The notes beneath the pieces are model-generated. The model worked only from the letters and a program-made list of their open reading frames with translations. It was not told where the DNA came from and did no database searches. The position numbers and the translations under genes were made by a program. A stretch of 64,000 nt of DNA from a virus, in IMG/VR virus record IMGVR_UViG_3300035670_000014, positions 64,001 to 128,000 of that record; one strand, written 5' to 3'. This document shows positions 42,403 through 45,465 of the stretch, in pieces (the first letter of the stretch is position 1; each line of letters starts with the position of its first letter).

Positions 42403-42676
42403 TGTAAGGAAACAGATTCATGATTGTTTCTTCGCATTTTTCAGTGATCATAAGAGTAACCAAATCAATATCACTCTCACAGTAACCAAATTTCTTCATA
42501 AACTGAAGCAAAGGTTGATAAGATTTAAACATTACAGTTTCTGTAATGTCATCATAAGTTTCGTACTTAAAGCAATCGGAAAACTTTTTGCCATTTTGCT
42601 TCTCGATTAAATAAGTTTGATAATAGAATAAATCAGCTAATTCCATAGTTGTAACCAATGATAAAGTCGCAAGCAA
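42395..42676 (-). CDS. Hypothetical protein
   Basis: Operonic ORF. Confidence 0.5.
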   Translation of the reverse strand: MLATLSLVTTMELADLFYYQTYLIEKQNGKKFSDCFKYETYDDITETVMFKSYQPLLQFMKKFGYCESDIDLVTLMITEKCEETIMNLFPYND

Positions 42677-42816
42677 ATGTTACTGGATATTGTTCTTTCT
42701 CAGTATTCATTGAATGACTTAAATAGGGGTAATGTCGTAATAAAGACACAAAACCCATGTTGAGTTTCGTTTATAATTTACTTGTATCGGATATAAAAGG
42801 CAAGTAAAGATAAACC

Positions 42817-42853
42817 AAAAGAAAGAAGGTGAAACCTTCTAGGTTTCACCTTT
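42817..42853 (-). terminator. Intrinsic terminator
   Basis: 12-bp stem AAGGUGAAACCU/AGGUUUCACCUU followed by CUUUCUUUU, at the end of the SPL-C gene. Confidence 0.75.
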
Positions 42854-43743
42854 TAGAAAGCATACCTTATCCTGCAATAGGGGATGTACTCTTGTATTAC
42901 AGATTTAAAATTAGAAACACTTTTAGCCTTTAAATCGTATTTATAGCAAATAACATCAGGCTTGTTGTATTTAGTTTGTTGACTCTTAGGATTCCAAAGG
43001 AATGATTCTCCCTTTGGGTTCCATACTTCGTTGATCTTATGAAGCTGCTCACTATGGGTGAGCATTATGACTTCACAAGCAAGTTGATCTTTGGCCTTCT
43101 GAGATAAAGTTGAATCAATAAGCTGGAAAAGCTTAATCCAGTCCTGCCTGGCACCAGGATAAAGAATCACCGGACTAAAGTTCAAGTGAACTTCATAGCC
43201 GGCATCAACAAGTTGATTGATTGCATTTATTCTTGCTGATATTTGACTAGTCCTGATGTCAACATATTGGGATATAGATTGAGGCATAAGGCTATACCTT
43301 ATCCTTACCCTATCCCCAGGATCAAAAGCCAGTAGAGGGGCAATATTGACCGTTTTAGTAGCAAAGCTAACCTTAGCATTCTCGCTGTGCTTAACAGCTT
43401 CCATTATTTCCAGTGGAATGTTGGAAATCATAAGGTCAAGGCTTACATCATTGTTATTACCAATGTCATAAGTCCAATACTTGGAATCACACTGATTAGG
43501 TTCAAGCTTAGGACCCAAAGAGTTAGAATGAGAAATTATAGAATCTATAACATCATCTGTATTAACAAATATAGTAACAGGATTAGAACCACCCTTTCTA
43601 CGAGCCGTATAACAGTTGTGAGTTAGAATATTTTCAGCAAAATAATTTTCATAAACAGGAACATGGAAATTATAAACAGTCGTATTTTTTTCAATTTTCT
43701 TTATACTTTGAATTTTAGAAAACTTAGGAGTTTTAAGTTGCAT
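42853..43743 (-). CDS. splB: Split-intein C-fragment (43 aa) fused to the C-terminal part of a spore photoproduct lyase-like radical SAM protein
   Basis: VYNFHV...NYFAENILTHN|CYTARRKG; the extein has YDIGNNND, FATK, RIRYSL, GYEVHLNFSPVI and ends RYAF. Confidence 0.9.
   Translation of the reverse strand: MQLKTPKFSKIQSIKKIEKNTTVYNFHVPVYENYFAENILTHNCYTARRKGGSNPVTIFVNTDDVIDSIISHSNSLGPKLEPNQCDSKYWTYDIGNNNDVSLDLMISNIPLEIMEAVKHSENAKVSFATKTVNIAPLLAFDPGDRVRIRYSLMPQSISQYVDIRTSQISARINAINQLVDAGYEVHLNFSPVILYPGARQDWIKLFQLIDSTLSQKAKDQLACEVIMLTHSEQLHKINEVWNPKGESFLWNPKSQQTKYNKPDVICYKYDLKAKSVSNFKSVIQEYIPYCRIRYAF
43615..43743 (-). mobile_element. IntC half of a naturally split intein
   Basis: Blocks F and G with terminal His-Asn followed by Cys+1; Lys-rich. 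Confidence 0.9.
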
Positions 43744-44574
43744 AACTGTTCTGTTTGTGGAAAGTTTACTAATAAAAAATGCTGTGAAGAAAAAGTATTC
43801 CTAGAGAAAGGTTTAGTATTTAACTATCACAGTGAAGCTGCAAGATATTTTAATGTAGATTCAAGATATGCAAAAAGAAAACTCTATAATGTAAACTATA
43901 CTTTAAGTGAAATAAAAATAACAAAAAACAGCAAACTAGTTAATTGTAAAATTTGCAATCAATCATCAATAACTTCAAAATGTAGAGCTGGATATTGTAA
44001 AAATTGCTCTCGTAAAGGATTAGGTAAGAAAACTAGAGGAATAGAATTAAGAAATAAATACCTTGGAGAGAAAAATCCAAACTTTAAAGATGGTAAAGCA
44101 AGGCAGTCGATAAGAAACAGACATGAATGGAAAGAAATAAGAAAAGAAATTCTTTCAGAAAGACAATGCTGTGAAGTAAGTGGACATAGTAAATACTTAC
44201 ATCTTCATCATATATTGCCAGTTTGCTTATTTCCACAATATTCATTAGAAAAATGGAACATTATTGTTCTTCAGGCTAATCTACACATAGAAGTTCATCG
44301 TCAAGATTTAGATATTGTGCTTCTACCCAACCTCTGTTCTTTGTATAAAGAGGATGTTCACCTGATACGCGAAGAGTTCGTCCGTCAACTGAAATTTCAT
44401 AAATTTCACTTACTTGACGAGATGCCAAATGAAAAGCTTGAGCTACTAAAGGAGAACCAGAATTGGTATCGTAAGAAATTACATCTGATCCCGATAGAAT
44501 TTGTTCTACAGGAATTTGGCCACTTGGAGTGGATATCAAAGTTCCTTCTTCCACGCAGTAGAGGCAAGAACTAA
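43738..44574 (+). CDS. HNH homing-endonuclease-like protein, inverted inside the split-intein locus
   Basis: CxxC pairs, GEKNPNFKDG and CEVSG...HLHHILP...NIIVLQANLHIEVH. Likely start is TTG 43738 after AGGAG (the track start is 43663). Confidence 0.85.
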   Translation: MHNCSVCGKFTNKKCCEEKVFLEKGLVFNYHSEAARYFNVDSRYAKRKLYNVNYTLSEIKITKNSKLVNCKICNQSSITSKCRAGYCKNCSRKGLGKKTRGIELRNKYLGEKNPNFKDGKARQSIRNRHEWKEIRKEILSERQCCEVSGHSKYLHLHHILPVCLFPQYSLEKWNIIVLQANLHIEVHRQDLDIVLLPNLCSLYKEDVHLIREEFVRQLKFHKFHLLDEMPNEKLELLKENQNWYRKKLHLIPIEFVLQEFGHLEWISKFLLPRSRGKN

Positions 44575-44866
44575 AACAGCCGTTTGCATGAGACGGCGGA
44601 ATAAAATCAGTTGACCTTCCAGAATCAGTCATTGCCATATTAGACATACGACCAATAACAAGAACATGTCTTTTATTTGCTATCCAATCTACAGGATCGG
44701 CCTTAGCTAAATCTGGAATAAGCCAGTGATTCTTAACATATTTAACTTCATAGTTAGAGCCAGAATCTGCAAGCTTTTGACAGATTGATGTGATTCTAGA
44801 TATTTCCTTTTCACTATAATTACAATTCTGTATATAAAGAGTATTTATATCACTCAGTTTAATCAC
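44276..44866 (-). CDS. splB: N-terminal part of a spore photoproduct lyase-like protein fused to the split-intein N-fragment (93 aa)
   Basis: GRSTDFIPPSHANGCFSSCLY|CVEEGTLI...SGEHPLY...GWVEAQYL. Probable start is GTG 44866 after GGGGA. Confidence 0.9.
   Translation of the reverse strand: MIKLSDINTLYIQNCNYSEKEISRITSICQKLADSGSNYEVKYVKNHWLIPDLAKADPVDWIANKRHVLVIGRMSNMAMTDSGRSTDFIPPSHANGCFSSCLYCVEEGTLISTPSGQIPVEQILSGSDVISYDTNSGSPLVAQAFHLASRQVSEIYEISVDGRTLRVSGEHPLYTKNRGWVEAQYLNLDDELLCVD
44279..44557 (-). mobile_element. IntN half of a naturally split intein
   Basis: Block A CVEEGTLI, block B SGEHPLY and GWVEA..L..DDEL, then a stop; acidic. Confidence 0.9.
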
Positions 44867-44887
44867 TAGGTCCCCTTGGTTGGTATT

Positions 44888-44908
44888 AAGAAAAGGCCCC
44901 AAGGGGCC
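44888..44908 (-). terminator. Intrinsic terminator
   Basis: GGCCC-CUUG-GGGCC followed by UUUUCUU. Confidence 0.65.
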
Positions 44909-44916
44909 AGATAGAG

Positions 44917-45465
44917 TTAAGACTGATACTCAGCAAGTAAATTCCTTACACGCTGAATTTCTTCTAGTGTATGAGGAGTACCTGTAGCGTTGATTCGTAG
45001 GTATAACATTAGCCGATCTGCAGGACTTAGGTCAACATACATAATCTTAACTTCCGTCTTGCGATATAGCTGTCGAATGTCCTTATCATCAAACTCATGT
45101 ACATAAATGTTCTCGCCGGTAGTCGGTTCGATTGCCGGGATGTTACCAAGCATCCAATGGTACAGCGAAAAGAGCCGATGTTGCCCATCAATGATCTCCA
45201 TATGATCATCGTAGATGTTTCGATTGATCCAGCATGGAGGACAGAATCCTCCAGTAATCATACTTCCGACAAAAGCACTAGCTTGATATACAGTCCAAGT
45301 ATGATTTCGTTGATAGTCAGGGACTACCCACTTTCGATTAGGATCATCTGGACTACCTGCAAATCCCTTTTGTATCTCAAACAAGTTAGCATGCGACTCA
45401 ACAACAAAAGGCAATGGTTTAAAGATAGAATCAAATGATCTTTTGATTAGAGTTGAAGCTGTCAT
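44917..45465 (-). CDS. Stand-alone DUF262 (ParB-like, GmrS-type) protein
   Basis: VPDYQRNHTW, IIDGQHRL and RINATGTP. Confidence 0.85.
   Translation of the reverse strand: MTASTLIKRSFDSIFKPLPFVVESHANLFEIQKGFAGSPDDPNRKWVVPDYQRNHTWTVYQASAFVGSMITGGFCPPCWINRNIYDDHMEIIDGQHRLFSLYHWMLGNIPAIEPTTGENIYVHEFDDKDIRQLYRKTEVKIMYVDLSPADRLMLYLRINATGTPHTLEEIQRVRNLLAEYQS

Follow-up and report, generated by a model that had tools for sequence, protein, structure and literature searches.

What has broken a phage radical S-adenosylmethionine (SAM) gene in the middle of its CxxxCxxC motif, and how might a single enzyme still be made from the two pieces? The DNA that raises this question is a stretch of 64,000 nt (the window), representing bases 64001-128000 of the complete 170,948-bp IMG/VR phage record IMGVR_UViG_3300035670_000014, which has direct terminal repeats. 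The broken gene, of the spore photoproduct lyase (SPL) family, is situated within a replication and nucleotide-metabolism module, where a DNA polymerase and a ribonucleotide reductase are also present, and it occurs only once in the phage genome. It is argued here that the locus is probably a fractured gene, in which a mobile cassette composed of a split intein and an HNH endonuclease gene lies before the third Cys of CxxxCxxC, with the host protein restored by trans-splicing and part of the cassette coding on both strands. The argument is built on sequence comparisons and structure predictions.

The two gene halves and the intein-free allele

The N gene (44276-44866, minus strand) encodes 196 amino acids (aa). 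It starts with GTG, is preceded at 7 nt by the Shine-Dalgarno-like sequence AAGGGG, and consists of a 103-aa N-extein ending HANGCFSSCLY, a 93-aa N-terminal intein half (IntN) and a stop codon. The C gene (42853-43743, minus strand) encodes 296 aa, of which the first 43 represent a C-terminal intein half (IntC) ending ENILTHN, followed by CYTARRKG. The halves are in different frames and are separated by 532 nt. IntN is acidic (14 D/E versus 5 K/R) and IntC basic (6 K/R versus 3 D/E). An earlier note, made by reading the DNA alone, had described all of these features: the junctions GCFSSCLY/CVEEGTLI and THN/CYTARRKG (the slash marks the splice site), the lengths of the intein halves, a gap of about 530 nt between different frames, and the complementary charges. 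Each was found where that note had placed it.

Both intein halves were recognised in hidden Markov model (HMM) searches. IntN matched PT-HINT (1.3e-5), Hint_2 (8.7e-5) and TIGR01445 (1.4e-4), and IntC matched the models given in Table 1. Each half alone falls slightly below the curated whole-domain cut-offs; a contiguous relative, P0050, passes that of TIGR01443. Cys1 of IntN (in CVEEGT), the His and Pro of block B (SGEHP in the window, T/S-x-E/D-H-P in relatives) and the GW motif are invariant in an alignment of 19 N halves and contiguous forms (A2), as are N25, F26, H27, V28, P29, T41, H42, N43 and C44 in an alignment of 14 C halves (A3). Contiguous mini-inteins, in proteins of 487-499 aa, occupy the identical site in relatives, and the split point in the window coincides with the short linker of such mini-inteins as that of P0050, which is the usual endonuclease-insertion loop.

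The complex of IntN (with six extein residues) and IntC (with nine) was also modelled. The prediction gave an interface score (ipSAE) of 0.69, versus 0.00 for the best of three controls; the mark used was reached by 58 of 80 solved complexes and by 2 of 110 mismatched pairs. The runs agreed in at least 90% of contacts, and the pLDDT (the per-residue model confidence) of the partners was at least 70. The two halves are thus predicted to dock, although the score may reflect likeness to known structures, because split-intein complexes have already been solved.

The most direct evidence for the nature of the break derives from an intein-free homologue, P0002. A protein search showed that this 356-aa protein carries the junction GCFSSCLYCYTARRKG, which is exactly the junction predicted after splicing, and that it is 93% identical to the window over the C-extein and 87% identical over the N-extein. 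The product spliced in silico (103 + 253 aa) has the same length. P0002 is encoded on L006, a phage contig that is syntenic with the window and shares its five downstream genes. In a blastn comparison the flanks of the window align with L006 up to 44556 and from 43616, and meet at L006 4308-4311; since both meet at one point, the window contains a 943-bp insertion (43615-44557).

These results support the proposal of the earlier note that the locus carries a natural split intein, here assigned to class 1, inside CxxxCxxC, with the third cluster Cys as the +1 nucleophile. The 196-aa and 296-aa polypeptides would associate through the acidic IntN and the basic IntC, and trans-splicing would then yield a 356-aa enzyme with C-FSS-C-LY-C rebuilt, the +1 Cys having become the third ligand of the iron-sulfur cluster. 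The profile searches and the alignment with an intein-free protein, both of which that note had suggested as checks, agree with this proposal.

At the level of Pfam, the host protein belongs to the SPL family. The N-extein matches positions 26-94 of the SPL-family profile TIGR03886 (lyase_spl_fam) and the C-extein positions 90-346 and, because these intervals adjoin, the exteins abut. The C half alone scores 71.6 bits with Pfam SPL (PF20903), for which the cut-off is 27. Alignment of the C-extein with the Geobacillus SPL structures 4FHC-4FHG starts at the third cluster Cys of the latter, and the restored motif C-FSS-C-LY-C-Y aligns to C-MGH-C-HY-C-Y of 4FHG, both flanking Tyr included. The profile NF038136, for intein-containing radical SAM proteins of the Rv2578c family, aligns unbroken across the GCxxxCxY/C junction of the N half. 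The TIGR03886 cut-off of 437.55 bits is missed, by the halves (317.8 and 60.9 bits) and by P0002 (399.7 bits); the cyanobacterial-type P0050 passes it at 552.8 bits. With TIGR04070, the model for spore photoproduct (SP) lyase itself, P0002 scores 98 bits against a cut-off of 400. At the position of Cys140, the H-donor of Geobacillus SPL, the nearest candidate is the Cys in NQCDS, two residues away in a gapped, low-confidence stretch; relatives have Val there. The earlier note had spoken of an SPL-like, UV-repair-type enzyme. Because the cut-offs of TIGR03886 and TIGR04070 are not reached, that description holds at the level of the family only; the host is not a proven SP lyase.

An assembly artefact, a possibility that the earlier note had raised, is ruled out by independent assemblies and samples that share the break. 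The same split is present in an ENA assembly (L003, 97% nucleotide identity), in Logan cluster P0121, and in a phage lineage of 61% identity (L004/L005) that was sampled several times. L003 has a spacer of 532 nt, L004/L005 have one of 530 nt, and in 17 viral loci it is 548 nt long. Artefact apart, an intron, frameshifting or bypass might unite the two ORFs (open reading frames) at the RNA level. These explanations together are given next to no chance: no Rfam family, introns included, matched 42600-45100 at E values up to 1, each half possesses its own intein half and its own stop or start codon, and the spacer codes for a conserved protein on the opposite strand. The phage GenBank collection gave no match by blastn (distant mode) with the locus or by tblastn with the C half, although related records may be absent from that collection. 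It could also be supposed that an HNH element landed in an intein-containing gene and killed it, leaving relics that neither splice nor form an enzyme. Decay is indeed seen in the family, with the HNH gene in three pieces in L004/L005, and frameshifted, with extra genes between the halves, in L013; the C gene, moreover, has no obvious Shine-Dalgarno sequence. A dead gene is nevertheless very unlikely, for both halves are intact ORFs in every lineage and all catalytic intein residues are invariant, conservation of the exteins as proteins extends from phages to cyanobacteria, the host-gene halves of L004/L005 are intact despite the decay of their HNH gene, and at least 30 distinct sequences retain the split. 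Slightly less probable still is an assembly of the halves without covalent joining, the intein halves serving as a dimerisation device only. A precedent for such assembly is the nrdA gene of Aeromonas phage Aeh1, which, as cited in Dassa et al. (2009), was fractured by an HNH element and has no intein or splicing. In the present case, however, the third cluster Cys would be left 136 intein residues away from the first two; furthermore, the invariant residues Cys1, block B His, terminal Asn and +1 Cys have no role outside splicing chemistry. On these grounds a pseudogene and RNA splicing were rejected as readings of the locus, as was, on the evidence of the next section, a chance open antisense frame.

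An HNH gene antisense to the intein

The spacer between the halves is not empty. A plus-strand ORF (43663-44574) begins with ATG and could encode 303 aa, but its likely start is a TTG at 43738, which gives 278 aa: a database protein that is 98% identical, P0237, starts there, and AGGAG lies 7 nt upstream. The TTG and the complement of the IntC ATG abut back to back (43738-43743, TTG then CAT), and the two genes diverge from that point. In the group L014-L031 the HNH and IntC starts instead form a palindromic CATG, the two ATGs overlapping by 2 nt on opposite strands (L017:3429-3432). Of 19 ORFs of at least 300 aa in the window, this is the sole one on the plus strand. It went unmentioned in the earlier note, and it is the most unusual part of the locus.

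It is apparent from comparison with homologues, of which 146 were found, that the protein is related to HNH nucleases. Residues H157, H158, N174, H183 and H187 (278-aa numbering) and two CxxC pairs are invariant in 17 family members (alignment A1). PHROG families annotated as HNH endonuclease or homing endonuclease gave E values of 1.5e-8 to 1.3e-6 with the window copy, and among 17 relatives Pfam HNH_2 was detected in 10, HNH in 3 and NUMOD1 in 3. The AlphaFold (AF2) model has a mean pLDDT of 73.5, with values of 84-93 in the nuclease core. The plus strand would thus encode an HNH homing endonuclease (278 aa) that has zinc-ribbon/NUMOD-like modules for DNA binding at its N terminus.

This gene extends over the entire spacer and, in antisense, over all of IntN, and it reaches 17 nt into the N-extein. 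From residue 180 to its end (the last ~95 codons) it is antisense to the IntN stop codon, all 93 IntN codons and those 17 nt, so that some 280-300 bp are shared by the HNH gene and IntN. The last two His of the HNH motif (H183 and H187, in the helix HIEVH, HxExH) are inside the overlap, opposite IntN DDELLC. The third codon position of IntN is the second codon position of the HNH gene and vice versa, and there is therefore no site that is silent in both frames.

Three tests bear on whether both frames are maintained. In the first, on stop codons, synonymous codons of each IntN were resampled from local codon usage. From 3.6 to 9.4 stops per IntN were expected in the HNH frame, and the probability of none was ~0.001, and up to 0.008, per lineage. 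All 30 distinct split IntN sequences among the fetched loci are free of stops in this frame past IntN codon 11; the stops that do occur fall within codons 1-11, at the end of the HNH gene. In the remaining two antisense frames 1-11 stops were counted, and the HNH frame of four contiguous relatives that have no HNH gene contains 9, 5, 6 and 0.

The second test concerns the rate of synonymous change, measured as the fraction of identical-residue codons that differ synonymously in 17 viral loci of one sub-family (136 pairs). In IntN codons 10-98 this fraction was 0.068. IntN codons 1-9 gave 0.40, the N-extein 0.45, IntC 0.23 and the C-extein 0.33, and the compared regions are similar in amino-acid divergence (0.17-0.19). 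Synonymous change in IntN is thus reduced approximately fivefold, and only inside the overlap. In the third test, the overlapped part of the HNH protein was seen to differ less than the rest, at the amino-acid level (0.135 versus 0.188) and synonymously (0.122 versus 0.254). These statistics show that both frames of the overlap are kept by selection.

Would the same pattern arise if the HNH ORF merely ran into IntN through a chance absence of stops, its tail being without function? There are observations that such a by-product would accommodate. The AF2 model is weak for residues 250-270 and 290-303 (303-aa numbering; pLDDT 40-56), the position of the HNH stop varies (IntN codons 2-11 in most lineages, past Cys1 in the window and L003), and the frame is open in the contiguous L052 too. 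We consider this explanation improbable, however, in that all 30 sequences are open when the chance of an open frame is ~0.001 per lineage, the fivefold suppression is confined to the overlap, and conservation within the HNH protein is highest in the overlapped segment, which contains the last two motif His and is modelled confidently over residues 205-250 (pLDDT 76-88). The preferred reading, then, is that of two genes both maintained in the shared DNA. Because the active-site part of the nuclease is encoded antisense to IntN, nuclease and intein could not be separated by recombination, and the overlap would tie them into one inseparable unit.

Several observations do not sit easily with the account given in this and the preceding section. 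Block B of the window IntN is SGEH and not TxxH, a Thr having been replaced by Ser, and in block F an Asn stands where Asp is usual. A recognisable Shine-Dalgarno sequence is lacking in front of the C gene. The window copy of the HNH protein reaches no Pfam HNH model, giving only weak FYVE and Peptidase_C74 noise, and in a Foldseek search of the PDB its model gave matches at E values of 0.1 or weaker, none at or below 0.001, although the top ones are all HNH nucleases (Cap5, T5 SciA, Gme HNH and the Cas9 HNH domain). The loci used in the substitution statistics are related, so the 136 pairs are not independent. Finally, the contiguous relative L052 (L052:301-1800; P0104, 499 aa) is also open in the HNH frame, its only stops being at IntN codons 7 and 9, as in the split loci. 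We take it to have been re-fused recently, once the HNH spacer had been lost, which is an assumption.

Distribution, probable mobility and decay of the cassette

The order C half, inverted HNH gene, N half was observed in every inspected locus with an HNH homologue. These comprised L003, L007-L011, L012/L028 and L014-L031 from IMG/VR, 15 metagenome loci and one bacterial chromosome; a profile search with a narrower alignment (A4) gave 15 loci in metagenomes and none in genome contigs. The chromosome is that of Leptolyngbya sp. NIES-3755 (AP017308.1, ~4.2698-4.2767 Mb; L032:1735-3882), in which a 229-aa N half and a 293-aa C half lie 576 nt apart. Between these two genes, both annotated as SPL, is an intact, uncalled 279-aa HNH ORF on the opposite strand. 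Leptolyngbya sp. NIES-3755 is a culturable organism in which the system could be tested.

Three kinds of host gene were found, and in all of them the cassette is situated before the third motif Cys. The first consists of the long SPL-family genes of phages and cyanobacteria, and the second of SPL-like phage genes with a short N-extein, whose C half scores 259 bits on TIGR03886. The third consists of AmmeMemoRadiSam/glycyl-radical-activase-like radical SAM genes, with junctions such as GCSMSCDY/C...THN/CQNW. A variant junction, GCLGGCMKSY/C, in which the motif is CX3CX4C instead of CX3CX2C, occurs in a short-N SPL-like gene at L012:3072-3485 (the same contig as L028).

Intein-plus and intein-free alleles occur in syntenic phages. 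From these allele patterns it may be supposed that, during co-infection, the nuclease cleaves alleles lacking the intein close to the sequence coding for CxxxCxxC, and that repair copies the cassette in, i.e. homing. The comparison of the window with L003 is of interest in this regard. The flanks are 99-100% identical, as compared with 94.0% for IntN, 83.5% for the spacer and 93.8% for IntC. All eight mismatches in the N-extein fall within 25 nt of the junction, and three of the six in the C-extein within 9 nt. Such a pattern would be expected if cassette alleles were exchanged with short co-converted flanks. The mismatches packed at the junctions are at 44561-44582 and 43606-43612, and the eight on the N side result in a single residue change, L to I at position -2. 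They may represent co-conversion tracts or target-site variation.

Evidence of decay was found in two places. In L004 (L004:3202-4002) and L005 the HNH gene has broken up into three ORFs, 51, 72 and 71 aa long; both gene halves are intact, and so is the spacer length of 530 nt. In L013 (L013:1-3753, from a 547,943-bp IMG/VR contig) the cassette resides in an AmmeMemoRadiSam-like gene, its HNH gene is frameshifted into two ORFs, and two extra ORFs, one of 365 aa, are situated between the HNH gene and the C half, leaving the halves ~2.5 kb apart. Judged from their sequences, these loci are later stages of the homing cycle. With the contiguous L052, they would supply intermediates for a cycle leading from a split gene with an HNH gene, through a decayed HNH gene (L004), to a re-fused mini-intein (L052), and would in this way extend the fractured-gene model of Dassa et al.

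As to the family as a whole, we lean, with some reserve, towards an obligately dual-coded mobile element. In such an element the HNH active-site helix and C-terminal domain would be encoded antisense to IntN, both proteins would be functional, the cassette would hop between radical SAM families by way of the third Cys, and splicing would perhaps be conditional on redox state or on how much iron-sulfur is available.

Comparison with known systems and features of the locus

Fractured genes were defined by Dassa, London, Stoddard, Schueler-Furman and Pietrokovski (2009; PMC2677866), who described gp41-1, gp41-8, NrdJ-1, NrdA-2, IMPDH-1 and others. Their hosts were gp41, IMPDH, DnaE, NrdA, NrdJ, ligase, terminase and one unknown. 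A single strand carried all the ORFs, the endonucleases were of GIY-YIG or Vsr-like type, and there was a same-strand overlap of 6-69 bp with the downstream half; it was also predicted that HNH elements might fracture genes likewise (PMC2677866). The present locus resembles these in that a conserved enzyme gene is broken by a split intein at one locus, where a free-standing gene for an endonuclease lies between the halves, the break is at the canonical endonuclease-insertion loop, the charges are complementary, and some copies have a decayed endonuclease or none. It differs in its host, the SPL-family radical SAM gene being absent from their eight host types, and in its endonuclease, which is of the HNH type, inverted, and overlaps IntN in antisense by ~280-300 bp with both frames under selection. 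The host family, the HNH type and the antisense dual-coding architecture thus appear to be new relative to known fractured genes; the dual coding itself is well supported statistically.

The nrdA gene of phage Aeh1 is split by the HNH gene mobE (Friedrich et al. 2007, as cited in PMC2677866 and PMC3322345). As far as these citing papers describe it, it shares with the present locus the division of a phage nucleotide-metabolism or repair gene into two ORFs by an HNH-type homing-endonuclease gene. It differs, by the same accounts, in having no intein, in the non-covalent assembly of its products, and in having the endonuclease on the same strand in one operon.

Like the DnaE inteins of Npu and Ssp, the window intein is a split intein of class 1 in which an acidic IntN (~100 aa) is paired with a basic IntC (~36-43 aa), and Cys1 is accompanied by a +1 Cys. 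Sequence similarity to them is confined to generic Hint motifs. Unlike the halves described here, which lie 532 nt from each other on either side of an active-looking HNH gene, the DnaE halves are at separate loci without an endonuclease gene (Dassa et al. 2009).

Contiguous inteins at the same kind of site have been described. The Pyrococcus abyssi MoaA intein lies inside a radical SAM CxxxCxxC motif (Callahan et al. 2011, as summarised in PMC3922620), and a disulfide between Cys-3 and Cys1, termed a 'redox trap', has been reviewed for it in the same paper. Novikova et al. (2016; PMC4760082) listed 48 contiguous SplB inteins, in Actinobacteria only. In the MoaA and SplB/Rv2578c (NF038136) inteins, as in the window, Cys1 follows the second motif Cys (position -3), and the host is related to COG1533/SPL or is another radical SAM protein. 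They are contiguous and splice in cis, and the sources describe no split form of them and no antisense endonuclease. The reading of the earlier note must be qualified to this extent: inteins at this motif were already known in contiguous form, and it is the split form in an SPL or radical SAM host, of which that note knew no case, that had no precedent in the literature searched. No description of a split intein in such a host, or of an endonuclease gene antisense to an intein half, was found in open-access papers and bioRxiv, an absence that is not proof. Because the second motif Cys is at position -3 from Cys1, it is conceivable, if speculative, that a Cys-3/Cys1 disulfide gates splicing here, by analogy with the P. 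abyssi MoaA intein. With the splice junction placed at a ligand of the iron-sulfur cluster and a Cys at -3, a natural redox- or cluster-gated maturation of a radical SAM enzyme would become directly testable.

The locus adds a putative natural split intein, divided canonically into 93 and 43 aa and flanked by native CLY/CYT junctions, together with dozens of diverged phage and cyanobacterial variants. These variants are candidate orthogonal trans-splicing pairs, whose exteins appear to tolerate a cysteine-rich context. Well-supported long antisense overlaps are rare in phages and bacteria, and the HNH/IntN overlap is for that reason a clean natural test case for the origin and persistence of such overlaps. 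It bears also on how selfish elements lock their parts together, an inverted endonuclease overprinted on an intein half being a type of association that was not found in the searchable literature.

The features of the locus are collected in Table 1. No terminator-like site was detected between the halves on the minus strand in the scan. Eight sigma-70-like sites were found, as compared with 9.9 expected from shuffling, and a promoter is therefore not claimed for either strand.

Table 1. Features of the split radical SAM locus, in window coordinates
Feature	Position	Strand	Basis
Terminator-like hairpin, 12-bp stem and T-run, directly 3' of the C gene	42826..42852	-	Terminator scan
C-extein, 253 aa and stop; first residue is the +1 Cys, third Cys of CxxxCxxC	42853..43614	-	TIGR03886 positions 90-346, E 8.6e-95; Pfam SPL 71.6 bits
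Predicted IntC, 43 codons (MQLKTPKF...VYNFHVP...ENILTHN), ATG at 43743-43741	43615..43743	-	HMM search: Intein_splicing 3.5e-5, also TIGR01443; invariant residues in alignment A3
Putative mobile cassette, 943-bp insertion relative to the intein-free allele	43615..44557	.	blastn versus L006
Shine-Dalgarno AGGAG, 7 nt 5' of the HNH TTG, antisense to IntC codons 2-5	43726..43730	+	Direct sequence reading
Putative HNH homing-endonuclease gene, 278 aa, TTG start	43738..44574	+	Homologues, invariant motif, PHROG, Pfam in relatives, AF2 core, dual-coding tests
Spacer between the halves, 532 nt, coding for the HNH protein on the plus strand only	43744..44275	.	ORF layout; length conserved in relatives
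Predicted IntN, 93 codons (CVEEGT...DDELLCVD) and stop at 44276-44278	44276..44557	-	Hint/intein N-terminal HMMs; invariant residues in alignment A2
N-extein, SPL-family radical SAM gene, 103 aa, GTG start, ends GCFSSCLY	44558..44866	-	TIGR03886 positions 26-94; start matches homologues P0122 and P0002 (begin MIKLSD)
Terminator-like GC hairpin belonging to the upstream gene, 28 nt ahead of the N gene start	44895..44908	-	Terminator scan

The gene immediately upstream of the N gene (44917-45465, minus strand) encodes a 182-aa GmrSD_N/DUF262-like protein (PHROG 1583; Pfam PF03235 in the relative L003). The protein corresponds to the N-terminal domain only of a family that usually has a C-terminal nuclease domain as well. 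Its gene is absent from the intein-free phage L006 and present in L003.

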